NCBI GenBank assembly: GCA_964016885.1
Contig: OZ024762.1
Span: 20,956,001-21,020,000, forward strand
Direction: 5' to 3'
DNA length: 64,000 bases
From: Eledone cirrhosa
Taxonomy: Eukaryota
Shown in pieces: positions 6,687 to 57,283 of the stretch. Below the pieces are notes generated by a model. That model was not told where the DNA came from. It worked only from the letters and a program-made list of their open reading frames with translations, and searched no databases. Position numbers and translations under genes: made by a program. Every line of letters starts with the position of its first letter. Within the stretch, counting starts at the first letter, position 1.

Positions 6687-7489
6687 TTTATCTGACATTC
6701 TAATAACTCTACCAATTTGCTGCCAAAACAAAGATCTCTCTAATGCTGATGCCATGATAAAATACACTCAGTAGAGCATGGGAGTATATATAAATGAAAT
6801 GGAGGCCTGCCAGGGCCCATCTGAGAGGTCTGTAACTCTGTTTGAGTACTGTCAGTCTGATGACTTGTCAAACCCCTGTGTTAAATAATGATGATAACTT
6901 TCTCTTTCTCTTTGACCAAAATTGACTATGATTACACCTCAAGAGGAATTACCCCTGATTTGTTTTAAATGTTCCAGTGACAGATGATGGTACCCTGTTG
7001 GCTCTATCATGAGCTGAGAGCTCAAAGTAAGCAGCCAGTGCCAGATTTAGGACAAAGAGGCCATGTGCTAGTTAAGCTATGAGGCCCCAAACATTTGAAA
7101 AATTCATTGTAAAAATTTTTTTGAGAGGAAGTTGGGACTCCCTGGCCTACAGAGCCCTGTGCTTAAGCACAACTAAGCACAATGGTAAAGGAATCATTGT
7201 ATTGAAATCAAATCTTATTACAAACATTGTGTTTTGTCTTCATTGAGCCTAGGAGGCATATCAGGTCACTGACATTACAGTACAATACACCATATGTCTA
7301 CAATCTGGTCACTTACACTACACTATGCTACACCATATTTCTGTAGCCTACACTACACTACACTACACCAATAGTCTGATCACTAATACATACACTACAC
7401 TACACCAATAGTCTGATCACTAATATAATACATATTACATATTACAAGCAAACAGCCACAGGAAACAAGTACCACCAATCTCTGGGAGG

Positions 7490-8400
7490 GCCCTGTAGAA
7501 ACAGTAGACAGCTTCTGCTACCTAGGTGACCGAATTAGCAACGGAGGTGGGTGCTCAGAAAGTACAATAACTAGGGTAAGAACGGGATGGAAGAAGTTTA
7601 GGGAGCTACTACCACTGCTAGCTGCAAAAGGCTTCTCCCTCAGAATGAAAGGCAGACTGTATGATGCGTGTATCCGAACAGCGATGTTGCATGGTAGTGA
7701 GACCTGGGCGCTGAAGGTGGAAGACTTACGTAGATTAGAGAGAAACGAAGCCTGCATGCTCCGATGGATGTGTAACAGTAATATACGTGAACGACAAAGC
7801 ATAAATGAATTGAGAGAGAGACTGAGCATAAGAGGAATCAAATGCTGCGTGCAGGAGAGGCGGTTACGCTGGTATGGACATGTGATGCGTATGAAGGATG
7901 ACAGCTGCATAAAAAGGTGCAGAGCACTAGAAGTTGATGGAAACCGCGGAGTGGGGAGACCCAAGATGACTTGGGATGAGGTGATAAAAGCCGACCTTAC
8001 CCAACTACACCTCTCAAAGTCAATGACACACGACCGTGACTTCTGGCGTCACGCAGTAATACAGGGTACCCGACCTCCCATGGGTACATGCTGAAGCATA
8101 TAAACAATATGCCCCCCCCCCCCCCCACCGCAAGGTGGTCGTGGAGGTGCCACGGCAAAAAAGCACCCAGCCCACACTGTAAAGTGGACGTGTAGGCGCC
8201 ACGAAAAAGCACCCAGCACTCACTGTAAATGAGGTTGGTGTTAGGAAGGGCATCCAGCTGTAGAAATCAAGCCAGATCAGTTCCTGTATGAGCAAGGCAT
8301 GGTCAGCCGACCAGACACTGCCCACAACAGGACAACCCGTCTAACCCATGCTAGCGTGGAAGAACGGACGTAAAACGGTGATGATGATGATGATGATGAT
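7490..8400 (+). mobile_element. 5'-truncated RTE-clade LINE (RT C-terminus, 3' UTR, (ATG)n tail)
   Basis: VDSFCYLGD...GWKKFRELLPLL...KGRLYDACIRTAMLHGSETW...RLRWYGHVMRM...GRPKMTW. Confidence 0.92.
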
Positions 8401-17699: not shown

Positions 17700-18315
17700 G
17701 CTATAGAAGTGGTGGATAGTTTCCGGTACCTAGATCAGATTAGCATGGGAGGGGGGGTGTTCCGAGGCCATAGTATCTAGAATGACGGGTTGGAAGAAGT
17801 TTAGGGAGCTGCTTTCTCTGCTGATGAAGAAGGGTTTCTCCCTGCGTACAAAAGGCTGGTTATATGATGCCTGTGTGAGGAGCGCGATGCTGCATGGGCA
17901 GCAACTGCAGAGGATATGCGACGGCTGGAGAGAAATGAGGCAAGCATGCTCCGTTGGATGTGCAATGTCAATGTACGTGAACGACCCAGCATGGATGTGA
18001 TGAGAGAGAAACTGTGTCTGAGAGGGATAGAATGTAGTGTGCGAGAGAGGAGACTGAGGGGTATGGACATGTGATGCGCATGGAGGATGACCGATGGGTG
18101 AAGAAGTGCCAGGAAATGCCAGTTGAAAGAAGATGTGGTAGAGGTAGGCCACGAAAAACATGGGCGGAGGTGGTGAGAACAGACCTCAGATTGCTGAAGC
18201 TCACGGTGGAGATGACGAAGGACCGTGACAAGTGGAGAGATGCTGTGCTGAATAAGACCCGTCCCACCCTTGCAAGCAGGGAAAAGCGGACATAAAATGA
18301 TGATGATGATGATGA
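17700..18315 (+). mobile_element. 5'-truncated, frameshifted RTE LINE
   Basis: GWKKFRELLSLL, GHVMRMEDDRWVKKC, GRGRPRKTW, (ATG)n tail. Confidence 0.9.
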
Positions 18316-18769
18316 AAAGGATGAAAAACAAAGTTGGCCCCAGTGAGATTTGAGCTGAGAGAACAGAGAGCTGAAATAAATGCCACAAAGCATTCTATCC
18401 CTCACCTAAACAACTCAAGCAATTCACAGCCATCTTATTACAAGATACCCTTTTCAAATCACTTCAAATCACAAATTTTTGGCAATCTTCTCCAGATTAA
18501 AGCCAAATTGATTAAATCATAGAAAAATTCCTGCAGGAAATCAGTTCCCGAGTTTTCGTTTTTACAGTGAAATAGTATACAAATATATATATACACATAC
18601 ATATATATATATATAGATATATATGCACATGAATGTGATATTTATACATACTTTCATACACACACAGACATACATGTAACTCTCTCTCTCTTTCTCTCCC
18701 CACCCTCTCTCTCTCTCTCTCTCACCACCCCCTCTCTCTCTTTCTTTCCCCACCCTCTCTCTCTCTCTT

Positions 18770-23179: not shown

Positions 23180-23475
23180 CTTCTATATTACTGCATAATG
23201 CCAGAGATATCGGTCCTGTGTCATCACCTTTGAGGGGTGCAATTTGGCAAGGTCAGCTTTCATCACCTCATCCAAAATCTTTCTGGGTCTCCTCACTCCA
23301 AGGCTTCTTTCGACTTTGATTGCTCTGCACCTTTTTATATAGCTGTCATCCTTCATACGCATCACATGTCCATACCGACGCAATCGCCTCTCCTGCAGAC
23401 TGCATCTGATTCCTCTTATGCCTAGTATTTTTCTCAGTTCAATTATGCTTTGCCATTCATGTATATTACTATTTC
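23180..23475 (-). mobile_element. RTE LINE fragment
   Basis: RRYGHVMRMKDDSYIKRCRAIKVE...RPRK, homologous to 7645-8094. Confidence 0.85.
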
Positions 23476-41348: not shown

Positions 41349-41640
41349 TATATAGAAGGAGAGAGAGGGAGTCTGCAGTGCTGAGACCGAGGAGACGACT
41401 AATCATGGGAGTACTCAATGTATGGTGAGATGCAGAGTGGGTATAGAGATATGTAGAATCTCGACTGCGACACCAAGCAGTTTCAGCTTGTGTGTTCAGC
41501 AAGCCTTTTCAAACACAAACCAGAACCACTGAGCACAGCTGTCAAGACTTTATATATATATATGTCTTGACAGCTGTGCCCAGTGGTTCTGATACGATCA
41601 ACACCATAAACACAGAGCTGGCATATCTAAGAACTGACTA

Positions 41641-41696
41641 ACTGCCTGATGAGGTCATAGCCATTCAGTGGCTATCATCGAAATATATATAGCAGT
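41641..41696 (+). ncRNA. Minimal type I hammerhead ribozyme (PLE-type)
   Basis: ACTGC-CTGATGA-[GGT C ATAGCCAT tca GTGGCTAT C ATC]-GAAA-TATATA-TA-GCAGT. Stem I is 5 bp, the core is intact, stem III is palindromic, and AATAAA follows at 41698. Confidence 0.85.
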
Positions 41697-41737
41697 AAAT
41701 AAAGGATTATGAGTTCATGCAATTGACTTGTGTTTTG

Positions 41738-41784
<47 letters not shown>

Positions 41785-41969
41785 GCTGCCTTCACACACT
41801 ACAACAGTTTTTTTACAGGCAGTCCCCAAATCAAATTTTAATTTGCTCCGGCCGTTTCGACAGCTAGCTGACGGGGTCCTGACTCTTTTCCTTTGACCCA
41901 CTCTACTACCTTAAGTATTGAGTACTCTGGTGCATTATGGTCCACCTGGTTCCTTACCACACTTCCTTC

Positions 41970-42016
<47 letters not shown>

Positions 42017-42266
42017 TCACTCACTCACTCACTCACTCACTCACTCACTCACTCACTCACTCACTCACTCACTCACTCACTCACTCACTCACTCACTCAC
42101 TCACTCACTCACTCACTCACTCACTCACTCACTCACTCACTCACTCACTCACTCACTCACTCACTCACTCACTCACTCACTCACTCACTCACTCACACAC
42201 TTTCCATTTTGTTTCATGCACCTGTTTAAATTTATTATGTGTTTGTTTTTCTTTGTATATTTCCAG

Positions 42267-42421
42267 TGAACCACTGATTATTTTCTCCGGTGGAATGCCC
42301 TATGACAAAGTGGGACGTACACCTAGTATTACGGTGATGAACGGAAAAAGTATTACAGTGCTTGAAATGGAACACAACATTGTGGATTTTGTAGTGTTGT
42401 GTGAAACCCCTTGGCAAAATG
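42267..42421 (+). CDS. STXBP5: Tomosyn exon F (LLGL-domain region)
   Basis: ttccag|...|gtaaca. EPLIIFSGGMPYDKVGRTPSITVMNGKSITVLEMEHNIVDFVVLCETPWQN. Phase 2 to 1. Confidence 0.95.
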
Positions 42422-42874
42422 GTAACAAATATTTTCACATTTCTTGGTGTGTGTGTATGTGTATGTGTGATAATTTAGATGTGAGAAGGCACTAGTGGAA
42501 ATACATGCATGCACACACACACACACACACACCAGTTATTAGTTTGTGTGTGTGTGTGTGAAATAATCTATATGTTGGGAAAGCATCAGAACAAACACAC
42601 CTGTTACAGATTTGTGTGTATGTAAATTTGTGTGTGTGTGGCTATATACTGAAATAAGTATGCAATTATAAAACACAAAATCATTGAGGCTTACCCACCG
42701 ATACAGGGTTGGGAACCCACAATTAATAATAATAATAATGAAATTATTGATGTACAGGGCTCAGGTGCACTACAACTCATCAAAGGTGCATGTATAGTAC
42801 ATTGAATAATGTACAAATGTCAGGAAGGTGAACTGTATATTTTGGTTGCCATGATAACATACATCCATCCCAGT

Positions 42875-43225
42875 TAGTACAGTGGTAGTGCTGGTGCCAC
42901 AATAAAAAAAATACCCATTACATCCTGTAAAGTGGTAGTGCCAGAGTTATGATAAAATACTCCCAGTACATCCTGTAAAGTGGTAGTGCCAGAGTTATGA
43001 TAAAATACTCCCAGTACATGCTGTAAAGTGGTTGTGCTGGGGTTATGATAAAATGCTCCCAGTACATGCTGTAAAGTGGTTGTGCTGGGGTTATGATAAA
43101 ATGCTCCCAGTACATGCTGTAAAGTGTTTGTGCTGGGGTTATGATAAAATACTCCCAGTACATGCTGTAAAGTGGTTGTGCTGGGGTTATGATAAAATGC
43201 TCCCAGTACATGCTGTAAAGTGGTT
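42875..43225. repeat. 48-bp minisatellite derived from retroposon tail sequence
   Basis: Unit cccagtacatgctgtaaagtggttgtgctggggttatgataaaatgct, running into the GTTGGCAT..GGAA tail motif. Confidence 0.85.
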
Positions 43226-43405
43226 GGCATGAGGAAAACCATTCAGTCTTAGAAAAGAAACCTAAAATGGAATGTATGAGCAAAACATGGCCACCTAAGC
43301 AGTCTAGCCTCTCATCCATGTAAGCATGGAGAATAGATGTTAAATGGTGGTGGTGATGATTATGATGGTGATGTTGTTAATTAATTTAAACTTTGTTTAT
43401 TTTAG

Positions 43406-43478
43406 ATTTTCAGGTACCCTATGCCATTGTTGTACTTCTTCAAAATGATCTAGTTGTTGTCGACCTCACTGTCCAAGG
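43406..43478 (+). CDS. STXBP5: Tomosyn exon G
   Basis: ttttag|...|gtaagt. (D)FQVPYAIVVLLQNDLVVVDLTVQ(G). Phase 1 to 2. Confidence 0.93.
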
Positions 43479-43639
43479 GTAAGTTTGGTTTTGTTGTTAT
43501 TGTTATTTCATAAATTATTTAACCCTTTTGATACTAACTCACCCACCTGAAGCTATCCCTGGTTCTATCTATGTTACAAAACTGTCCCATTTAAAGTGTT
43601 CATATTTACATCAAAGCATCCCTTCATAATTATATCCTA

Positions 43640-44095
43640 ATAATAATAATGAAAATAATGAAAATAAATGTGTACAGTGCTCAGGTGCACTACAACTCAT
43701 CAAAGGTGTATGTATAGTACATAGAATAATGTACAAATGTCCGGAAAATGATCAGTGTATGAGTCATGATATACACACAGATACATGCAGGCGTGTGTAT
43801 GGAGGGGGAATATTAGGTGTAGTGTTGGCAAATTTCGGGAAGCATGGATGTTTTAAAGTATGCAGTGTCTCGACAGCTAACAACTGATGCAGGTAGTTTG
43901 TTCCATGCTTCAGTAACTCTGAGCGTGAAAGAATGTTTCCGAAAGTCATGGGAACTGTGCTGCTTTCTGACTTTGTAAGCATGTCCACTGGTGTTAGACA
44001 CATGGAATTCAAAAAGGTGCTCAAGGTTGTTGTTGGCAAGATGTTTAATAATTTTGTGGGTGTCTACCAAGTCAGTTGCCAGACATCAGAGATTT
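43640..44095 (-). mobile_element. CR1-clade LINE 3' end
   Basis: TSGHAYKVRKQHSSHDFRKHSFTLRVTEAWNKLP (CR1 TRGH...F..RV...WN.LP motif) plus an (ATT)n tail. Shorter copies lie near 42725, 51610 and 53141. Confidence 0.88.
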
Positions 44096-44515
44096 AATGT
44101 GAGAAATTTTAAAGTTATGTTCCAAACACTAACTTAGTGAATAAAAAACCTTGGCATTCTATTCATACTAAATACAAAATTCTTGATTATTTTCAATATA
44201 AATTGAAAAACAAATATAGGTAGTGTATTTCATTAGAAATATGGTAATGAGGGGGTTAATGGAGGAAAGGGCTGTGCCCATGGCCCTCACAGACTGTTTT
44301 GTGCTTAGTCGATGTTCAATTTAAAGGTGTCTAGGTGAGTGTTTATAAGAAAAGTGTGGACAGGGAAGAATTTCCAATGGGTTGCATCTCTGGGGTAGAC
44401 AGACTGGATGTGGTGGGTTTTGTGTTAGCAATCCAACATTTTTAATATATTTTTGCAATCCACAAATTTTACATTTTTAAGAACTTTGCAGAAAAGTGAT
44501 ACAATTAATGAGTGC

Positions 44516-44700
44516 AGTGGATTGGCAGTATCGGTAGAGGGTCGGACACCATGCATTGAAGCATAGAGTTACGTCCCTTTACAATCTGAGTTCAAATCCC
44601 GCCGAGGTTGACTTTGCCTTTCATCCTTACGAGGTCGATAAAATAAAGTACCAGTAATGCACTGGGTAATTGCTGGCCTTGTGCCTAAAGTAGAAACAGT
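44516..44700 (+). mobile_element. SINE family A, near full-length copy
   Basis: Same tRNA-like head and body as 1126-1525. Confidence 0.85.
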
Positions 44701-44910
44701 TATTGATGTAGATTTATATTAAATTAACGAATGTACTGAATGAAACTACAAAAAGCCACAAATTGTTAATAAATCTAATCAAATTAACTGAATAAATTCA
44801 ATAATTTGATGTTTGAATAGCAAAAAAAATCTCTGCCAGATTATATTGGGAATTATCTTTATATAAATAGATAGAAACCACATCAAAGGAAGGAAGACAA
44901 ACAATGAATT

Positions 44911-45558
44911 GTAGAGCCAGTGTTGAATGTTGTGAAGAGAAATATAATGAGATGGTTGGGTCATGTGTTGAGGAAGGATGGAAGTAATGGGAATAGAGCC
45001 AGTGTTGAATGTTGTGAAGAGAAATGTAATGAGATGGTTGGGTCATGTGTTGAGGAAGGATGGAAGAAATGGGAATAGAGCCAGTGTTGAATGTTGTGAA
45101 GAGAAATATAATGAGATGGTTGGGTCATGTGTTGAGGAAGGATGGAAGTAATGGGAATAGAGCCAGTGTTGAATGTTGTGAAGAGAAATGTAATGAGATG
45201 GTTGGGTCATGTGTTGAGGAAGGATGGAAGTAATGGGAATAGAGCCAGTGTTGAATGTTGTGAAGAGAAATGTAATGAGATGGTTAGGTCATGTGTTGAG
45301 GAAGGATGGAAGTAATGGGAATAGAGCCAGTGTTGAATGTTGTGAAGAGAAATATAATGAGATGGTTGGGTCATGTGTTGAGGAAGGATGGAAGTAATGG
45401 GAATAGAGCCAGTGTTGAATGTTGTGAAGAGAAATGTAATGAGATGGTTAGGTCATGTGTTGAGGAAGGATGGAAGAAATGGGAATAGAGCCAGTGTTGA
45501 ATGTTGTGAAGAGAGATGTTATGAGATGGTTGGGTCATGTGTTCAGGAAGGATGGAAG
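44911..45558 (+). repeat. 82-bp minisatellite, about 8 copies, derived from LINE RT coding sequence
   Basis: The unit translates GIEPVLNVVKRNIMRWLGHVLRKDGS (LINE RWxGHVxR motif). Confidence 0.9.
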
Positions 45559-45896
45559 TGACAATTTTTGCCATTTCTCAGACATAAAATAGTGGGGTGG
45601 ACTTATATTCAAATACCGTATTTCCCAGCGTCAAAGGCGCTACTTTTTTTTCCTAAAATAAGTCTAAAAAATCTACCATATGTCCTGCAGGCCAAAGGTT
45701 GTTTATTTTTTTTCATATTTTTGGTTGTCAAAATTAGGGTGCGTCCTCAAGGACAAAGCATCTTTGGCGCCAGGAAATATGGTATATATGGTACATTATT
45801 TCAATTTTTTCTTTTAAGAAAATGTTTAATGTAAAAAAAAAAAAAAAGTGCTTGAAATAATGTTTTGAAATATTTTCAATTCCCACATTTTTGCAG

Positions 45897-46044
45897 CTAC
45901 CCGTGCTTTGAAAATCCTTATCCTATGGACATTCATGAGTCTCCAGTAACTGCTTGCCAGTACTATGCAGACTGCCCTCCAGATCTAATACCTGCCTTCT
46001 ACTCTGTTGGATCAAAACAGAAAAAAACTGGTTTCAGCGAAAAT
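45897..46044 (+). CDS. STXBP5: Tomosyn exon H
   Basis: ttgcag|...|gtaagt. YPCFENPYPMDIHESPVTACQYYADCPPDLIPAFYSVGSKQKKTGFSEN. Phase 2 to 0. Confidence 0.96.
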
Positions 46045-46070
46045 GTAAGTTCTTTGTTGACTTTTTATCT

Positions 46071-46297
46071 TTAACCCTTTAGCATTTACATTAATCTATA
46101 TATACTATTGTATTTTCACAGTAAAGGCTTTATCTTACATAATATCTCACATAATATCGAATCTATGAGATTTTAATGTTATTTATTTTGAGAACAATAC
46201 CTTAACGTAATATGAGCGGCAAGTTACGGCCGGTTTAAATAGAAAAAGGTGAGAGAATTCTGGCCAGATACGGCCGGTTTAAATGCTAAAGGGTTAA
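46071..46297. mobile_element. piggyBac-like MITE (TTAA target, TIR CCCTTTAGCATTTA)
   Basis: TTAA-CCCTTTAGCATTTA...TAAATGCTAAAGGG-TTAA. Related copies lie near 3780, 13551, 25444, 33092, 34630 and 61000. Confidence 0.85.
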
Positions 46298-46394
46298 GCT
46301 GTTATTCTAACCGCCAGCTTAATAAGAAGAAAGTTAGTTATGATACTAGATTACTTCAAATTCTTGATTATATTAAAAACTATTTGAAAATCAT

Positions 46395-46990
46395 AGTGTC
46401 TTTGGTCTTTGAGGTCATGTTGCTCGATGGACTGCATAGCCAGGAGATCAGCGTTGCTCCAAGTAGAGCTAATACTTCTCCAAATTGAGGGATCACAGCT
46501 CCGATACTATGGGCATGTGATTAGAATGTCTCAGGAAAGAATCGCTGGACAAATTTTATGGACAAAACCGGCCAGCACGAGCCCCAGGGGTAGACTCTGA
46601 GCAAGATAGTTGGATAACATCCATGAGCTTGGTTGCTCTTGCTTGGGGATCCAACTGGATCAATTGCAGATGGTTGCTGCTGAGAGGACCCACTGGAGGG
46701 AGTGTTTGAGGACTCTTCTCCTATGACCCTCTCAGGAATAAATGGCCAAAGAAGAAGATATTGCCTTTCAGGAAAGAATCGCTGGACAGATTTTATGGAC
46801 AAAACCAGCCAGCACGAGCCCCAGAGGTAGACACTGAGCAAGATAGTTGGATAACATCCATGAGCTTGGCTGGTTTTGCTTGGAGATCCAACTGGATCAA
46901 TTAGAGTTGGTTGCTGCTGAGAGGACCCACTGGAGGGAGTGTTTGAGGACTTTGTTCCCAGGAATAAGTGGGCAAAGAAGAAGATATCGT
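46395..46990 (+). mobile_element. LINE 3' fragment (RTE-like) with an internal ~240-bp duplication
   Basis: QLRYYGHVIRMSQERIAGQILWTKP...RGR. The segment from TCAGGAAAGAATCGCTGG occurs at both ~46531 and ~46768. Confidence 0.75.
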
Positions 46991-47056
46991 CTTTCATTAG
47001 AAATATCTCAATGAAAAAGTTGACTAATTTTCTGTTATGATTCTTTGTTGTTGCAG

Positions 47057-47124
47057 GGATGGCCAATAAAAGGTGGTGAATGGGGAACAACAACTTGCAG
47101 CTACCCTGAGATAATTTTAACTGG
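47057..47124 (+). CDS. STXBP5: Tomosyn exon I
   Basis: ttgcag|...|gtaatt. GWPIKGGEWGTTTCSYPEIILT(G). Phase 0 to 2. Confidence 0.94.
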
Positions 47125-47588
47125 GTAATTATCTCTTTACACCTATTTTTAATTGCTAGAATTTTTCTTAACATGCTGACTCATTCATGAGTATATTATT
47201 ATAAACATACAAACATAGACACACTTACAAAAATACACACAAATACACATACGTTCACACACATTCATACAAACACACACAGGGTCGATAACATAAAGCA
47301 CCAATAACACACTGGGGTCGACTTAATTGATTTTCGCCTCCCCTGTGTGTGGGTGTAGGTGTGTGTATGTGTGTGGGTGTAGGTGTGTGTGTGTGGGGGT
47401 GTAGATGTATGTAGGTGTGTAGTTGTGTGTGGGTGTGTGTTTACGTATGCAGGTGTGTGTAGGTGTGTGGGTGTGTATGCAGGTGTGTATATGTGTAGGT
47501 ATGTATGTATGTATGTATGTATGTGTGTATATGTGTGTATATGTGTATATATATATATGTGTTTAGGTGTACATGTATATGTATGTAG

Positions 47589-47626
<38 letters not shown>

Positions 47627-47751
47627 TTTAGTACAGCATTAATATATATGTAGGTGTATATATGTGTAGGTGTGTATATATATATATATATATATATATG
47701 TAGGTGTGTAGGTGTATATATATGTAGGTGTGTAGGTGTATATATGTGTAG

Positions 47752-47783
<32 letters not shown>

Positions 47784-47881
47784 GTAGGTGTATATATATG
47801 TAGGTGTGTAGGTGTATATATGTGTAGGTGTGTATATATATATATATATATATGTAGGTGTGTAGGTGTATATATGTGTAG

Positions 47882-47920
<39 letters not shown>

Positions 47921-48009
47921 GGTGTGTATATGTATGTATATGTGTAGGTGTGTGTATATATATATATATATATATATGTAGGTGTGTATATATATATATA
48001 TATATGTAG

Positions 48010-48046
<37 letters not shown>

Positions 48047-48529
48047 GGTGTGTATGTTATCAAACTTGTTACAAAATTGTATCAGTGATCACTGAAACAA
48101 CACTAAATATCAGACGTCATCAGTCTTTACAACCAACAGCTACGATAGCTTCTTCCACCTCTTCTTCTCTCTCTCTCTACTATCTCTCTTGTATAATCCT
48201 CTCTTGTATAACATAGCCCCCCCTCTCTCTCTCTCTACTATCTCTCTTGTATAACATAGCCCCCCCCACCCCTCTCTCTCTCTACTATCTCTCTTGTATA
48301 ACATAGCCCCCCCCCCACCCCTCTCTCTCTCTACTATCTCTCTTGTATAACCTAACCCTCTCTCTCTACTATCTCTCTCTATCTCTCTACTATCTCTCTT
48401 GTATAACCTAACCCTCTATCACTCTCTACCATCTCTCTCTCTCTATCTCTCTTGTATAATCTAACCGCTCTCTCTATCTCTCTACTATCTCTCTATTATT
48501 TCTCTCTCTCATCCTTTCTTGTACACTCT

Positions 48530-48615
<86 letters not shown>

Positions 48616-48949
48616 CTCTCTCTCCCCCTCTCTCTCGCAGTCTTTTTCTCGTTATTTTTCTCATGCTTTCTCTCCGTCTCTCTCTTTCCCTCTCTCCCTC
48701 TCACACAAATTCTTGTTCTCACCATAGCTTTGGCATATAAAAATTGTATCTATATATGTATATATATGTGTGTGTGTGAGTGTGTGTATAAATGCGCATG
48801 TGTGTGTATATATGCACATCTATGTGTATATATGTGCATATGCGTATATATGTGCATATGTATGTGTATATACATAAAATGATGATAGATAAGCCATTTG
48901 TCGTTGCAGAAATAAAAGGGTTTGAATATGAACAAGATTAAACCTCTCA

Positions 48950-51090
48950 CATCCCCTCATCTCCACTCCACTCTACCCTCCTTCACTCCACTCTACCCTC
49001 CTTCACTCCACTCCACCCTCCTTCACTCCACTCCACCCTCCTTCACTCCACTCCACTCCACCCTCCTTCACTCCACTCCACTCTCCTTCACTCCACTCCA
49101 CTCTCCTTCACTCCACCCCACTCTCTCCCTTCCACTCTTCTTCACTTCACTCCACCATCCCTCACTCCACTCCATTCTCCTTTCCACCATTCCACTCTAC
49201 CTTCCTCCACTCCACTCTACCTTACTCCACTCTACCTTCCTCCACTCCACTCTACCTTCCTCCACTCCACTCCATTCTCCCTTCCTTCACTCCACTCTAC
49301 CTTCCTTCACTCCACTCTACCTTCCTCCACTCCACTCTCCCTTCCTCCACTCCACTCTCCTTTCCTCCACTCCACTCTCCTTTCCTCCACTCCACTCCCT
49401 TTATATCTCTTAACCCATCAATACCATCCTTGATTACATCTCTGCCCCCCCCCCCCACCCCCTCATCGCCGCCGTCCCTCCAAATATCCATCCAATCACA
49501 TCCAACTATCCAGTACTATATATATCTCCTTCTTCCAACCAATATATATACCATCTAGTATCATAAACAAACACTAAAGATAAAGATACCATGACCCCTT
49601 GTGGAGTCGTAGAGGCACCGTCATAGTGGGTCTAGGACACTTTTAACCTTGGCGGCGCCCAACCCTCTCCAGCTCTGAACACAGCCGATTTTTTTTTTCT
49701 ATAGAGGGAGAATCAACCCCAGTACAGGTGGACTGGTACTTTTTTTTTTTTTATCAACCTCGCAAGGATGAAAGGCAAAGTTGACCGTGGTGGGATTTGA
49801 ACTCAGAATGCCCAATGAGGTGGAGGCGAATACCGTAAAGCATTCTATCCGATGTCTTAACGGCTCTACCGATTCGCTGCCTCGTAAACAAACACACCAA
49901 CCAAGTAAACGACACTAATCTAGTTAAAACAGAAACAAAACTCATCTTAATTTCATACATACATACATTTACTTATTAATCCTAATCCAATATTTTCTAA
50001 TTCACTTGCTTTAATTCCCAAGATATATCCACTTACTTGGGATATTTACATTTCCAACACTACCCCAGAGCACCACCACCACCACCACCACTCCCGCTCC
50101 TCACCAAGCCACTCTCTACCCCAGACCACCACCACCCCCTCTTCCCCCCCCATCACCAAGCCACTCTCTACCCCAGACCACCACCCACTCTGCCCCCCCC
50201 CCATATCCAAGCCTCTCTCTACCCCAGACCACCACCCACTCTGCCCCCCTCCCCATATCCAAGCCTCTCTCTACCCCAGACCACCACACCCTCTGCCCCC
50301 CCCCCCCTATATCCAAGCCTCTCTCTACCCCAGACCACCACACCCTCTGCCCCCCTCCCATATCCAAGCCTCTCTCTACCCCAGACCACCACACCCTCTG
50401 CCCTCTGCCCCCCCCCCACCATTTTTATGTTACCAACGCCATCTACCCCACCTTGCAGACTCACCCTCAGTTCTATTTTCGGATGATTTTCTCATGAGGA
50501 ATATTTCCTGGTCATTCCTCTTTCTCTTAAAACCACCATCACCACCATCACCATCATCACCATCATCACCATCACCATCATCACCATCACCATCATCACC
50601 ATCACCACCATCACCACCATCACCATCACCACCACCATCACCATCACCATCACCACCATCACCATCACCATCATCACCATCACTATCACCACCACTACCA
50701 CCACTACCATCACCATCATCATCATCACCACCATCATGATCGTTGTCATGGTGATGATCATTATCATCATCGTCATCATCATTGTCGTCATGGTGATGAT
50801 CATGATCATCATCATCATGATCATCATCGTCATGATTGTCACCATGATGATCACCATCATCATCATTATCATCATCATCACCACCATCATTATCATCATC
50901 ATCATCTTCATCACCATTATCATCTTCATCATCATCACCACCATCATCACCATCATCATTATCATCATGATTGTCACCATCATCATTATTATCATCTTCA
51001 TCACCACCATCACCACTATCACCACCACCATCACCATCACCACCACCATCACCACCACCACCACCATCACCATCATCATCATCACCCACA
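48950..51090. repeat. Low-complexity block: (CTCCA)n, a ~60-bp C-rich minisatellite, and a CAT/CAC trinucleotide tract
   Basis: Direct inspection. Source of the spurious Pro-, Asp- and Met-rich ORFs. Confidence 0.92.
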
Positions 51091-52104
51091 TATCTATTTT
51101 CCATGCTTCTCTGAGACTAGACAGACCAGTCAGTTTAAATGACTGTTTCTTTACTCAAATGTTCCATTTTTGCATGGTTTCTGCAGCTGGATGCTTTTCC
51201 TAACTCCCACCCTCTTACATGTGGAGGTGTGCATGTGGCCTAGTGGTCTGTCTGTGGCCTAGTGGTTCTGAGTTCAAATCCTGCCAATGTTAACTTTGCC
51301 TTTTATACCAGTGACACACTGGGGTCGATTTAATTAACTTTCCCCTCTCCCCAAATTTCTGACCTTGTTCTATAGTAGAAATGATTATTATTTTTAGGAG
51401 TAGTAATAATAATAATAATTTCTACTTTTTCACAAGGCCAGCAATTACCCAGTGCATTACTGGTACTTTATTTTATCGACTCCGTAAGGATGAAAGGCAA
51501 AGTTAACCTCGGCGGGATTTGAACTCAGAATGGAAAGGCCTGTAACTCTTTGCTGCAAAGCATGGCGTCCGACCCTCTACCGATACTGCCAATCCACTGC
51601 CCTTGTAGTAATAATAATAATAATAATGAAATTATTGTGTACAGTGTTCAGGTGCACTACAACTCATCAAAGGTGCATGTGTAGTACTTAGAATAATGTG
51701 CAAATGTCAGGAAAATGAACAGTGCACGAGTCATGAAATACATGTGTACATGTGTATGGAGGTGGAGTATCAGGTATTGTGTTGGTGAATCTCAGGAAGC
51801 ATGGAGGTTTTAAAGGATGCAGTGATGCAGGTAGTTTGTTCCATGCTTCAGCAACTCTGAGCTTTGACGCATAGAGTTACGGCCCTTGCCATTCTGAGTT
51901 CAAATCCAGCCCAGGTTAACTTTGCCTTTCATCCTTACGGGGTCGATAAAATAAAGTACCAGTAATGCACTGGGTATTTACTGGCCTTGTGCCAAAAGTA
52001 GAAACAATTATATCATTTACATTAGGATGCATACATTTTAAAGTAATTAAAAAAAAACACATTATATTCTTCGTAACTTTTTAATTTTAATATTTATTTT
52101 TCAG

Positions 52105-52145
52105 ACATGCCGATGGTTCAATAAAATTCTGGGATGCTTCAGCAG
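52105..52145 (+). CDS. STXBP5: Tomosyn exon J (41 nt)
   Basis: ttttcag|...|gtaaaa. HADGSIKFWDASA, completing the Lgl/tomosyn signature TGHADGSxKFWD. Phase 2 to 1. Confidence 0.94.
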
Positions 52146-52200
52146 GTAAAAATTTATTTAATGTACGAAGTTGAATTTTCGGCTTTTGAAGCGGTGAGAA

Positions 52201-52244
<44 letters not shown>

Positions 52245-52328
52245 TAACCCATGCTAGTGTGGAAGATGGTTGTTAAACGATGATAATGATGATATAAATA
52301 CATACATACATACATACATATATATATA

Positions 52329-52369
<41 letters not shown>

Positions 52370-52401
52370 TAAGATCAAAAGATGGTTAAATGAGTTCCAT
52401 G

Positions 52402-52472
52402 TATTTTATTATGCGCATTTCAAAAACAAATATCATCATGCAATAACATTTGTGTTTTCATCAGATAAAATA
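52402..52472 (-). ncRNA. Minimal type I hammerhead ribozyme (PLE-type)
   Basis: Minus strand: TATTTTAT-CTGATGA-[AAA C ACAAATGTTATT gcat GATGATATTTGT T TTT]-GAAA-TGCGCA-TA-ATAAAATA. Perfect 8-bp stem I, palindromic stem III. Confidence 0.88.
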
Positions 52473-52814
52473 GGAGGACATGATATGAAGGTTAAAAACA
52501 CTTGTGGATAGTGCACATTTAAATCAACATATTGAAATGCGCTGGCCTTGTGCCAAAAGTAGAAACAATTATTTTCTTCTATTTTTCTTCTATTTTTCAT
52601 TTACTTATTTACATTGCTTTATATAAACTTATTTTCTGTAAATAAATTCTTTCCTTTTCAAAATGATTTGAAAATTTTAAGCAGTATCTTTCATAATAAA
52701 TATGGTAACAAAATGGTTAAAAAACAAATCTATTTTTAATATTTCCAGAATACATCATTTAAAATCTTTTCAATTTTTCTTTTTTTTCTTCTTTTTTCTT
52801 TCTATCCTTATCAG

Positions 52815-53017
52815 TTACTTTACAGGTTTTATGCAAAGTAAAATCTGCAAAACTATTTGAGAAACCTAAATGTAAAAATTCTGACGGTAGTGATGATGAT
52901 CCGTTTGCTATCCAGACGATGCAGTTGTGTCGCGAGAGCCGTTTATTATGTGTCGCTGGTGCTACACATGTAATGCTCTTCAAGTTTGACAAACAAGAGT
53001 CTCAACATGAAGTCGTT
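52815..53017 (+). CDS. STXBP5: Tomosyn exon K
   Basis: ttatcag|...|gtaagt. (V)TLQVLCKVKSAKLFEKPKCKNSDGSDDDPFAIQTMQLCRESRLLCVAGATHVMLFKFDKQESQHEVV. Phase 1 to 0. Confidence 0.95.
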
Positions 53018-53339
53018 GTAAGTATTAACTATTATATTGGATACCTTCCCCATCATTCTAACCTCTCTCATTGGTCAATCACTGTTGACTCTAGCTCTTT
53101 CTTTCTTCTCTCTCTCCCTTTTCTCCCCCCCCCTCTCTCTAATAATAATAATAATAATAATGAAATTATTGTGTACAGTGCTCAGGTGCACTGCAACTCA
53201 TCAAAGGCACATGTATAGTACATAGAATAATGTAGATGCAGGTAGTTTGTTCCATGCTTCAGCAACTCTGAGCATGAAAATATGTTTCCGAAAGTCATGG
53301 GAGCTGTGCTGTTTTCTGACTTCTCTATATATATATGTA

Positions 53340-53384
<45 letters not shown>

Positions 53385-54535
53385 TAGGTAGTACAGTGAA
53401 ATACTGGTGTTTCTACCAAATCAAGCACTCTATACACAGGCAGAGTGTATATAATAGAAAAAAAACAAGGAAGTTTTGTTTACATATGAAAAATATTTAT
53501 TGTGTATCGACCTGTTACGCACATTTCGCTGAGGATTGGCTCAACGTGACCCATAGGAGTTATAGACCTGACTCCAGTATTGATCTGCTCATCCTATTGG
53601 TCACAAAATGCGTGTAACAGGTCGATATGCAATAAATATTTTTCATATGTAAACAAAACTTTCTCGTTTTTTCTATTATATATATATATATATATATATA
53701 TATTTAATATAATATATAGTAAAAGAACATTATCTTAACATGGTTGTATAAATATATTTGATATAATATATATTGTAAAAAAGAGCAACATGATCTTAAT
53801 GGGGCTGTATAAATATATCTAATATATTATATAAGAAGAGTATTTTAATATCGTTTGTGTAAATACACTTAATCATACAAGAAGTATGCTAAGAATTAAC
53901 ATGAAACACAAAACATTGTTCTATCAGTATGGATATTTAACACAGAGATAGGAATTTGTGTCAGATATTGATTAGAAATAAACCTGTTTAAACCAGTTTT
54001 AACTTTTGTACAATTTGTTGCAATAAGGGAAATGAATGGTTACCTCTAAATCAATATATAATCAATTATATCATTATCATTTTTATGTTTGCTTTTTTAT
54101 GCTGGTATGACTTTGATGAGGAACTTTTGAGACTATATTTTACAGCTGGATGCCCTTCCTATGACTAACCCCTCTAATCTGTCCTTTCTACATCCAACGA
54201 TATGGTGTACCTATCCTAAAAACTGAGATATATGCAGTAATATGTATATCATCAACAGTATTAACATTATTTGACATCTGTTTTCCCTGCTAGTAAAGGT
54301 TGGACATGTCATCACAGACTGGTCAATGTTTGAATTGGACCCACCAGGTAGGCCAGGGGGTGCATCATACGATTCCATGCTTTACCAAGTGCATTTTATC
54401 ATGGCATCAACACTAGGAAGTTTCTCGTGTCTTTAACAAACCTGAAGAGTCCTCCCAACTCTTTGTTTGGCATCTTTTCTAGCTCATCAACAGTAGAGAG
54501 GTTATGTTTAGGTCACGACTGAAGAGCCTTCCTGA

Positions 54536-54584
<49 letters not shown>

Positions 54585-54839
54585 GCTCTCTTTCTCTCTC
54601 TCTCTTTCTCTCTCTCTATATATATATATATGTTTGTGTATAGTGGTAGCTATGGTGCTTCCATAGGCGGTATGCCAAAATTAGCACTCGATATTCATCA
54701 GAGTAGAGTGTATAAATTATAAAGAAAACGAAAAATCAGTGATGCATCTGGACTTGGTTTATTTCGTGTTACAAATGTTTCGTCGGCAGGTAGCTCAAGT
54801 CATGGTCCTTGTGATAAAATTTGCTCCGGACATAACAGA

Positions 54840-54930
54840 CATGTCTGAAAGAACCCGCAGAAGTAGATTCAGCCAGATCCATACAAGGACCATGACTTGA
54901 GCTACCTGCCGGCGAAGCATTTGTAACACG
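54840..54930 (+). ncRNA. Decayed type I hammerhead within a fold-back element
   Basis: CATGT-CTGAAAGA-[aCC C GCAG..GTAG...CTAC CTGC C GGC]-GAAg-CATTTG-TA-ACACG, then AATAAA. The inverted arm retains GAAA-CATTTG-TA-ACACG. Confidence 0.55.
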
Positions 54931-54977
54931 AAATAAACCAAGTCCAGATGCATCACTGATTTTTCGTTTTCTTGATA

Positions 54978-55045
<68 letters not shown>

Positions 55046-55048
<3 letters not shown>

Positions 55049-55149
55049 GGGTGTCACAAAAAATATTTACACACTTTGATTACCTGTACAGGCAATATTT
55101 ATTAGAATGCTATTGATGTGTGTATACATTTTTTGGAAACACCCTGTAT
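55046..55149. mobile_element. ~100-bp Tc1/mariner-like MITE
   Basis: AAAGGGTGTCACAAAAAAT...ATTTTTTGGAAACACCCTGTA imperfect TIRs. Confidence 0.55.
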
Positions 55150-55276
55150 ATATATCTAAACTATAATAAAGTAAGGAGCATATATTATAATGTGTGTGTG
55201 CGTTCATGCCATGCAAATTTTTGGAGTAAAAATACAATATATTAATAAATGGAAACTATATTTATAAAACCATATT

Positions 55277-55341
55277 TATTTCATTATACATATTTCAAGG
55301 ACACCAAAGCAAATTATGGTGCGCTTTCATCAGATAAAATA
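55277..55341 (-). ncRNA. Minimal type I hammerhead ribozyme (PLE-type)
   Basis: Minus strand: TATTTTAT-CTGATGA-[AAG C GCACCA...TGGTGT C CTT]-GAAA-TATGTA-TA-ATGAAATA, overlapping AATAAA. Confidence 0.85.
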
Positions 55342-56615
55342 TAATATAGATCAGTTTTATAAACAAATATTGTCATACCCTTAAAAGAATGCGACCATGT
55401 CTGTTGGAAGCTCCCGGATAGTGGGGTAACAAATTTTATTATTGGTCTATTATGCAAATTAGTGTCAGAGAGGTTTAAATCCCATACATTTAAATTAAGC
55501 CGTTGGAATAGGAAAAAAAAAAATACTTATATATATATATATAGGAACGAGTAGGACCCCGACGGTTGAGCTCAAGCCGTTTCGACGGCTAATTCTGGAC
55601 TGGCCGTCGAAACAGCTAATTCTGGATTAGCCGTCGAAACGGCTTGAGCTCAGCCGTCGGGGTCCTACTCGTTCCTATTACCCACTCTATTGAGTACTTT
55701 GGTGCGTTATGGTCCACCTGGTTCCTTACCACATTTCCTTCATTATATATATATATATATCTATATATATATAAGTACATGATGACCAACCACAGCCTTA
55801 TATTACCAATGAATGTTTTTATTATACTTACCAACTCTGAAAACACTTTAAATTATTAACTAGGCTAAAAAGCCACATTTGATCCCAGCACTGATAAAAG
55901 TTTGATTTTTGTCTGATGGTTATACTTGATAATGAGAGGGCAGTCATCATGTATATATATATATATACGTCATGTACATCAATACTCATCTTTTTCCATT
56001 TCTCCGAGGGTTCTTAACCCCACTATCAGGCTAAATAATTTCTTTAATTTCTTTAATTTCTTTAGTCAAAATACGGCGATAGCTTACATTTCTAATAATT
56101 TCAAACCCACTCGCTGTTTCGAAAATATTCTTACTTTATATATATATATATATATACATACATAACTATCCATATCCCCAGGGCTGGCGTCAATTCTTCC
56201 TTAATCTCTCTTTGTCACTTTCTCTTTCTTTCTCTGTAAGAAATTGGCTGTGTTCTGGCCTGACCTAGAGCAGGATTGGCTCTGCCAGATTTAAAATTAC
56301 CCACAACACACTGTATGTTAGGATGGAGGCCCTTACAATTCCATCAGGAGTTAAGGGACCTTTATTTTACCATCATTAATTTGTTTTTATTGCTGTCATA
56401 ACTACACAATTGTTGTTTTTTTTTTTGTTGTATTTTGGGTGGGGAGCTCAAATAATTACATGTTGTTTTTTTTTAAGTTTATTCTTTAATTCTTTTGCTG
56501 TCTCATAAAAAAATTTTTTTTAATTTTTTTTTGGTGATCAAATATTTAAATGATATATTTTTTATTTTATTTTTTTCTTTAACCCTGTCCCCTTTCTGAA
56601 AACACCAAAAACAAG

Positions 56616-56762
56616 GCACTAGAAATCCAGATCATTTATGAAGTGTATGATGACTTGGATTCTCCAGATTATGAATACTCACGGCCATTTCTTGGTGCAG
56701 TCCATCAACAACAGAGTGGAAGCCTTGGCTCCTATTCCAGCAGTGCATCCGATAGTACTAAG
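56616..56762 (+). CDS. STXBP5: Tomosyn exon L
   Basis: acaag|...|gtaaca. ALEIQIIYEVYDDLDSPDYEYSRPFLGAVHQQQSGSLGSYSSSASDSTK, resembling vertebrate MLEVRLLYEINDVETPE...SSSSSD. Phase 0 to 0. The acceptor is atypical. Confidence 0.85.
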
Positions 56763-56786
56763 GTAACAACTCTCTCTCTCTCTCTG

Positions 56787-56829
<43 letters not shown>

Positions 56830-57212
56830 GTATATATATATGTATATATATATGTATATATATATTAAACAAAACTTCAAATCTTTGAATTGTCTTCATC
56901 ATTTTCTTTATATATATATATATATTCAAGTGAAGAAAGTTGGTTGATCACATAATTCGACTTTAGTCATATATATATACATACACACATATTTACAGGC
57001 ATGTAAACCACTCCTCAACTTGTGTCACTTAAATTATTATCAATAAGGTATCAACCAGAGTGTCAATATTATAAAGATCTATTTATTATATAATTCTGTT
57101 ATATGTATTTCAAAGACATCAAAGTGATTGCATACTATGACTACTGGAGTGAACTGCTACCAACATGTTCCTAACTACAGTAGTATATCAAAAAGAAAAA
57201 CACAGCTTTGCA

Positions 57213-57283
57213 CCTGTTTGAAGAGAACACATCAAAGGGTTATTATGCAATCACTTTGATGTCTTCGAAGTATGTATTACAGG
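57213..57283 (+). ncRNA. Decayed type I hammerhead within a fold-back element
   Basis: CCTGT-tTGAAGA-[GAA C ACATCAAAG...CTTTGATGT C TTC]-GAAg-TATGTA-TT-ACAGG, then AATAAA. Core substitutions C3U and A15.1G. The inverted upstream arm retains GAAA-TACATA-TA-ACAG. Confidence 0.7.

Follow-up and report, generated by a model that had tools for sequence, protein, structure and literature searches.

Five hammerhead folds at the ends of element copies

The window analysed here, a stretch of 64,000 nt from Eledone cirrhosa (contig OZ024762.1, positions 20,956,001 to 21,020,000), carries exons of a large host gene on its + strand together with five hammerhead ribozyme folds, which are the 3' ends of dispersed, 5'-truncated retroelement copies and not a device of the host gene. 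All five share a mismatch at the fourth position of stem II, where a C (10.4) faces a C or U (11.4), hereafter a C-Y mismatch. We find that this conserved mismatch is real, old and restricted to a lineage, and comparison of the sequences suggests that it is probably kept by selection. An earlier note on this DNA had claimed five such folds, and all of them parse as described, the starts it gave as 52402 and 55277 taking in a longer stem I. Its claim of a C opposite C or U in every fold was borne out by direct reading and by a descriptor scan, which recovers all five sites, three with a strict core and two with a relaxed core. The folds and the element copies around them are as follows.

41641-41696, + strand: hammerhead fold, intact core; C41656 opposite C41676; predicted cleavage 3' of A41691
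52405-52469, - strand: hammerhead fold, intact core; C52454 opposite U52425; antisense to the host gene
54840-54930, + strand: hammerhead fold, 8-nt core fixed in its family, first pair A x C; C54856 opposite C54910; GAAG through decay
55280-55338, - strand: hammerhead fold, intact core; C55323 opposite C55300; antisense to the host gene
57213-57283, + strand: hammerhead fold, decayed core (UUGAAGA, GAAG); C57228 opposite C57263
41585-41741 (start approximate), + strand: 5'-truncated element copy containing the 41641 fold, ending at (TA)n
54708-54812, - strand: inverted 5'-truncated partner copy, holding the 3' half of the 54840 fold alone, with GAAA
57078-57140 (ends approximate), - strand: partial partner of the 57213 fold (its 3' half), inverted

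Each fold has three positions beside the core, then the C opposite C (four of five) or U (the 52405 fold), followed by four or more further pairs; when the window was shuffled 100 times by dinucleotides, the descriptor gave zero matches with a four-pair helix beyond position 4. AATAAA lies 3' of stem I in four of the five, as had been noted. The type I hammerhead core (CUGANGA plus GAAA, with an NUH site) is intact at 41641, 52405 and 55280 and altered at 57213 and 54840, the two copies that the earlier note had taken as decayed. For 57213 this was right: its family (families are named here after their window fold) mostly has CUGAAGA or CUGAUGA with GAAA (19 copies read), so both the UUGAAGA and the GAAG of the window copy are decay. 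For 54840 it was right only for the GAAG, since GAAA stands in 23/23 family copies. The 8-nt core CUGAAAGA (window 54845-54852), which has a fixed extra base, is present in 23/23 copies read, and A x C as first pair is the majority state of the family; thus neither is decay. Older sisters of this family (L182, L184 and L185; L numbers denote loci) have cores altered at positions 4 to 7, and their stems persist.

Single-copy folding energies of the window folds were only slightly better than those of shuffles (z -0.7 to -2.2), and the support for the folds therefore comes from comparison and not from energy. The comparison with Rfam hammerheads that the earlier note had proposed gave no window match to a hammerhead model, either among the 150 of 233 window matches listed or in two focused scans to E 10. 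The matches listed were microsatellite-driven microRNA look-alikes and sub-threshold matches, and were rejected. Rfam models miss these folds, and descriptors requiring an unbroken stem II would do the same; the number of hammerheads counted in such genomes is therefore probably an underestimate.

Four of the five window copies end no more than 55 nt from a (TA)n run, and the inverted partial partners listed above correspond to an arrangement described for insertions of Penelope-like elements (PLEs) (PMC8557442; this and the other papers cited below by accession are drawn on in part). In a scan of the genome (3.0 billion bases), a pattern that put no constraint on stem II matched 3465 times, versus once for a control. 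The 41641 family made up 99 of the 100 matches listed from these 3465 and 29 of the 30 loci fetched; its copies share a 3' end, most often at (TA)n, that lies approximately 100-125 nt beyond the start of the core, their 5' ends are ragged (median ~72 nt upstream of the core), and its 38-nt core-to-GAAA word has 2108 exact copies in the genome. Insertion at (TA)n was seen for most of the 30 fetched copies. Copy numbers of the window families run from hundreds to thousands, and the window folds are unexceptional members. The copies are dispersed, single or in inverted pairs; tandem units with a hammerhead each, a retrozyme trait, were not seen among them. The 57213 family is older, its other copies being 73-89% identical, and the 54840-family locus L180 reads fold, open reading frame (ORF), fold. 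Thirty-nine random 10-kb genome stretches contained nine strict C-Y hammerheads. These nine matches in 390 kb give a rough estimate of 69,000 strict copies genome-wide (range 32,000-131,000), and at that density three strict folds in 64 kb have a P of about 0.19; the five folds in 16 kb are thus not a special cluster.

Some further features of these families were observed. Many 41641-family copies (41585-41741; L001-L030) begin ~72 nt 5' of the core and form a unit of ~175 bp that resembles a short interspersed element and may be a solo terminal repeat. In the 55280 family, inverted pairs of ~390 bp arranged head to head are frequent and have a near-identical junction (L011:1130-1620; 40/40 best matches to such a query); they may represent a non-autonomous unit or a hot spot for junctions. 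One contig, labelled as another organism, holds 94 nt of the 41641-family stem II-to-tail segment (L031:7795-7888) without a difference.

The earlier note had also linked the folds to PLEs, and this can be shown for four of the five families. Long 41641-family copies carry a same-strand reverse transcriptase (RT) followed by a GIY-YIG domain (L031, L032, L035), the 52405 family is linked to an RT-endonuclease (RT-EN) frame in L034/L066, in L135 and L137 the 57213 family has a same-strand endonuclease upstream, and the 54840 family is linked to an ORF in L180. A single ORF with an RT and then an endonuclease of the GIY-YIG type at the C-terminus was found in L032, L034/L066, L088, L180 and L159. 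A motif search of eight loci revealed DKT, YRDD, W[YF]N[PA]P, YIG, the linker CxCX5C, and CxxC and CxH around a conserved E and N, in agreement with the description of the Hydra clade in PMC8557442. The N-terminal RWK motif was not at the expected place, and most fetched ORFs lack the N-terminus. Judged by these motifs, with the published Hydra proteins compared by eye, the four window families are PLEs of Hydra-clade type. Pfam gave no match for the element protein or the host exon, PDB likewise named neither, and the viral contigs searched held no relative of the element. A Naiad origin, considered for the (TA)n targets and the 'half core' remarks in the Craig supplement, was rejected because the endonuclease lies C-terminal. 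Approximately 60,000 first-look candidates for the Hydra-type endonuclease occur in the genome, and 6/39 random 10-kb stretches contain a clear piece of it; such a number is a very large expansion of the Hydra clade, for which the 2021 table (PMC8557442) has one octopus family.

The mismatch across families and lineages

The mismatch was followed through 952 kb of fetched DNA (186 records, with 14 duplicate loci omitted), a sample enriched for the window families, using a descriptor that leaves pairs 1 and 4 unscored and by design excludes short-stem families. The scan gave 145 matches in 21 families with a long stem II. At pair 4, ten families had C-C and one C-U, U-C and A-C were represented by one single copy each, and eight families were paired; by contrast, pairs 2, 3, 5 and 6 (scored, with one miss allowed) were mismatched in none of the 21. 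Thus the enrichment of C10.4 opposite a pyrimidine, which the earlier note had put forward as a check, was found in 11/21 families at a position that was itself unscored. In the unbiased 390 kb, nine of 13 matches had C-Y, and ten shuffles of the same DNA gave none. Sorted by stem III, the feature is present in 9/10 families whose stem III starts with AU (the tenth being the U-C copy) and in 2/11 of those starting with AC.

In an alignment of the ten AU families, 11 of the 15 pairs change on both sides, which supports stems I and II, and pair 4 is unpaired in 10/10. The 44 cells changing on both sides were equalled in 0/500 shuffles, pairing dropped to 25-51% in slid-register controls, and RNAalifold independently gave the same fold with pair 4 open, confirming the covarying flanks that had been described around the mismatch. 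All 11 C-Y families have a purine-pyrimidine pair at position 5 and a pyrimidine-purine pair at position 6, and U2.3 and A1.6 are invariant among them. Closure of pair 4 from the 5' side was seen in five exact copies of the 41641 family versus the 2108 with the mismatch, a level expected from later point mutation.

In the sequences compared from outside this genome the feature was absent. From metagenome contigs, 79 loci of Hydra-type elements were collected, 53 of them with a fold and 30 with distinct long-stem hammerheads; none of these 30 had C-Y at pair 4, 27 were paired there, and C-G was the commonest pair (14/30). By eye, C-Y was found at pair 4 in 0/26 Hydra rows of Craig et al. 2021 (PMC8557442, File S2), the octopus row included, and in 0/56 rows of Cervera and De la Pena 2014 (PMC4209133, Fig. 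S3), where one row has U-U and one C-A; the mismatch is thus not standard in these two published alignments. A search of the literature on hammerheads and PLEs found no C-Y mismatch in stem II, although the PLE hammerhead variants aligned by Lunse et al. 2017, outside that search, may show it. A paper on Octopus repeats (PMC13282606) contains neither 'hammerhead' nor 'ribozyme'. Because C-G is common elsewhere while C-Y is absent from the metagenome set and the published tables, C10.4 is, on the sequences compared, the common older state, and the new step is the loss of its G partner with a pyrimidine kept. Hammerheads at the ends of PLEs are an already known system, and the conserved mismatch is the part that the papers and tables read do not contain. 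Of the distinct structural subclass inferred in the earlier note, what stands is a feature restricted to a sub-lineage of this genome; it is not general to PLE or Hydra hammerheads (0/30 elsewhere, 8/21 own families paired). Nor is the elongated stem II distinctive in itself, as a long stem II is already common among Hydra-type hammerheads.

The age of the feature was assessed with an RT tree of the genome's own elements and 15 relatives from metagenome contigs (LG+G4; its rows project patchily onto a single reference). The four linked window families group with one sister copy in a clade (98/94) that is nested within this genome's own radiation (99/96), and therefore the five folds are not independent inventions. 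A fifth C-Y family (L088) falls outside this clade. End branches measure 0.4-0.7 changes per site, proteins of different C-Y families are approximately 31-46% identical, and one origin for all C-Y families was not rejected (approximately unbiased test, p 0.30; 0.17 in a smaller tree).

Such a history invites the explanation that the mismatch is a neutral relic, in which the G11.4 of an ancestral C10.4-G11.4 pair mutated in one element and the result was carried by descent. The single clade of the four linked window families, the frequency of C10.4-G11.4 elsewhere and the many Hydra families that thrive without the mismatch are all in line with this. However, a neutral unpaired site is expected to change faster than paired sites; with the group defined by stem III alone, 9/10 families keep the commonest letter on each side of pair 4, compared with 56% of families on average at other stem II sites, and the stem II loops, from a few to ~90 nt, are unalignable. 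We therefore regard a relic as quite unlikely.

A putative docking site for the element protein

The reading that we favour, tentatively and at a little below an even chance, is that the mismatch is an old feature of the sub-lineage, kept because the element's own RT-EN likely docks at this putative site. According to the proposed mechanism, the 8-nt stem III palindrome would pair solely between two copies, and the mismatch would leave pairs 10.1-10.3 partly formed. The RT-EN may then bind at the mismatch and at the outer pairs that follow, of which 5 is always purine-pyrimidine and 6 always pyrimidine-purine, and the bound protein would close the inner stem, tying cleavage or template choice to the ribonucleoprotein of the element.

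Several predictions and published observations are consistent with parts of this scheme. The 8-nt palindromes or near-palindromes of stem III are predicted not to fold alone, and co-folding yields a two-copy hammerhead for 41641 and 52405, though not for 55280 or 57213, in agreement with the known dimer mechanism (PMC6765202). The predicted pairing probability of the inner stem II is below 0.6 in 8/11 C-Y families and rises to at least 0.88 in all of them after in-silico closing of pair 4. Cleavage by PLE hammerheads is weak without protein (PMC4209133, PMC11167929), and an Anolis PLE hammerhead cleaves only with the element protein, while its catalytic mutants still insert in vitro (PMC11167929). 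We infer that the RT-EN protein is the most likely reader of the C-Y mismatch, which is fixed and has a fixed purine-pyrimidine context on its outer side.

The state of the cores also bears on this. In the 54840 family the mismatch persists despite the inserted core base and the open first pair. In another young Hydra-type family (L069, L150-L179) the core is fixed as CAGAAGA, U4 being replaced by A in 37/37 copies; the core thus seems less constrained than the helices, and shape more than catalysis appears to be under selection. This family is unrelated to the 54840 family, its fetched copies are 97-98% identical in protein, and it may have spread without a working ribozyme. It has a 3-bp stem II, a long stem III, a core ~950 nt past the ORF and open frames to ~740 amino acids. 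A broader proposal, which we hold to be rather doubtful, is that these folds form a hammerhead subclass of tens of thousands of copies in which the fold would first be a recognition tag for the element RT, with the mismatch as putative docking site and the core free to decay while the tag is kept.

Several observations weigh against protein docking. The tree requires two origins of the mismatch, or one origin plus losses, and the family counts are not independent trials because the families are related. Three old sister copies of the 54840 family have U, A and U at 10.4, opposite C, instead of C, and no ORF was found for the 55280 family in eight upstream stretches searched (L189-L195, L057). 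With 8/21 own and 27/30 foreign families paired at this position, Hydra proteins in general have no need for the mismatch, and the Anolis element, the source of the analogy for a protein role, belongs to another clade. Finally, the mismatch goes together with U2.3 in stem I, an association that an RNA-RNA contact would explain equally well.

Such a contact would make the mismatch the receptor for a protein-free interaction between stem II and stem I, through the U2.3-A1.3 pair or an often unpaired A1.6, replacing the loop-loop contact that is impossible for a long stem II. U2.3 is present in 12/12 mismatch families (the U-C copy included) versus 3/9 of the others (Fisher p 0.0015, uncorrected for relatedness), and 4/200 label shuffles were as low over all positions. 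A1.6 is paired in just five of the 11 C-Y families, and solved hammerhead structures have position 1.7 of stem I in contact with the loop that follows pair 4 (PMC11875169). However, U2.3-A1.3 also occurs in 20/30 hammerheads without the mismatch, and by eye U2.3 is present in ~17/25 published Hydra elements (PMC8557442). Since it is frequent without the mismatch, U2.3 may simply be ancestral, which weakens the case for a contact. In addition, position 1.6 is a purine in 21/21 own families, and the length of stem I past pair 5 varies among families rather than being conserved. We consider this explanation somewhat unlikely and favour protein docking over it.

The mismatch might also have no specific partner and act as a tuner of stability. 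As the weakest pair it would keep the inner stem II open, or permit slip-pairing of the core with the 3' strand, and so damp cleavage until a dimer has formed. C-C is among the weakest mismatches, the core is paired with the 3' strand of stem II in the folds predicted for 41641 and 57213, as well as in the predicted 41641 dimer, and slipped-register complementarity is higher in mismatch families (p 0.023). Against this, the slipped G8-11.4 pair is populated in 2/12 families, and a tuner would not require one position, a C on a fixed side or a fixed purine-pyrimidine pattern at pairs 5 and 6. We judge tuning unlikely. A general slipped-core switch as the main cause was rejected, being populated in the same 2/12 families; position 7 pairs with 11.3 in 5/12 family majorities, no better than chance.

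The mismatch bears on why PLEs retain hammerheads at all, given that insertion did not need cleavage in the in-vitro system mentioned above. Kept while the proteins share under half their residues, it offers a precise site to mutate, and the same genome supplies natural controls, some of them related families that lack the mismatch and others young families whose cores are altered.

The host gene and known hammerhead systems

The host-gene rows are given below; the second exon fixes the host strand, so that two of the window folds are antisense and three sense.

242-544, + strand: exon of a large beta-propeller-like gene
52826-53017, + strand: exon of the same gene (AG...GT), encoding a beta-propeller-like peptide
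56583-56762, + strand: exon of the same gene

Atlas look-alikes of the host exon were of WD40 type and weak. The gene may be tomosyn/STXBP5-like. Elsewhere in the window, three fragments presumably resemble the C-terminal part of the RT of long interspersed elements (7429-8094 on the + strand; 17730-18405 and 23183-23473 on the - strand), the first having no match in Pfam. There are inverted repeats at 39681-39854/40424-40597 (97% complementary) and 53448-53526/53606-53684 (87%), and an 82-nt tandem array at 44830-45703.

As the folds lie between + strand exons, they might have been co-opted by the host gene as intronic ribozymes regulating its pre-mRNA, and domesticated intronic hammerheads are known in amniotes (PMC6155905). 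For such a ribozyme a sense orientation, a low copy number and an intact core would be expected, whereas here two of five folds are antisense, two lack GAAA, the copy number is high and the density is near the genome average. Co-option is thus very improbable; 'intronic', as the earlier note had it, describes position alone, and the intronic copies are passive insertions.

Non-LTR retrozymes (PMC7229834; bioRxiv 10.64898/2026.07.22.740005) are likewise mobile repeats that contain type I hammerheads and are related to the terminal repeats of PLEs. They are, however, tandem non-coding units, the canonical ones with loop-loop contacts, and the present folds lie in dispersed fragments from the 3' ends of coding elements. 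The Anolis Poseidon element PAc (Frangieh et al. 2024, PMC11167929), a PLE whose hammerhead requires the element protein, is the model for the mechanism proposed here; it differs in clade, the passages of that paper drawn on mention no stem II mismatch, and the present folds are known from sequence. The min-HHR of Cervera and De la Pena 2014 (PMC4209133) resemble our families in their place in PLE terminal repeats, their massive numbers of single truncated copies, the many families per genome and the predicted dimers. Unlike them, the present families have no extra base between 9 and 10.1 (21/21 long-stem families pair in register without it), the G10.1-C11.1 pair is not conserved (2/5 window copies, 4/11 C-Y families) and stem III has 8 nt. 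Closest are the Hydra-clade hammerheads (PMC8557442), which share the 3'-terminal type I fold on an element with RT and C-terminal GIY-YIG inserted in (TA)n, the palindromic stem III of 8-10 nt, the frequent U-U or other open first pair and the frequent C10.4. The published Hydra rows mostly have a stem II of 3-7 bp with a small loop, whereas the hammerheads described here have a fixed mismatch at pair 4 and, beyond it, a covarying helix.

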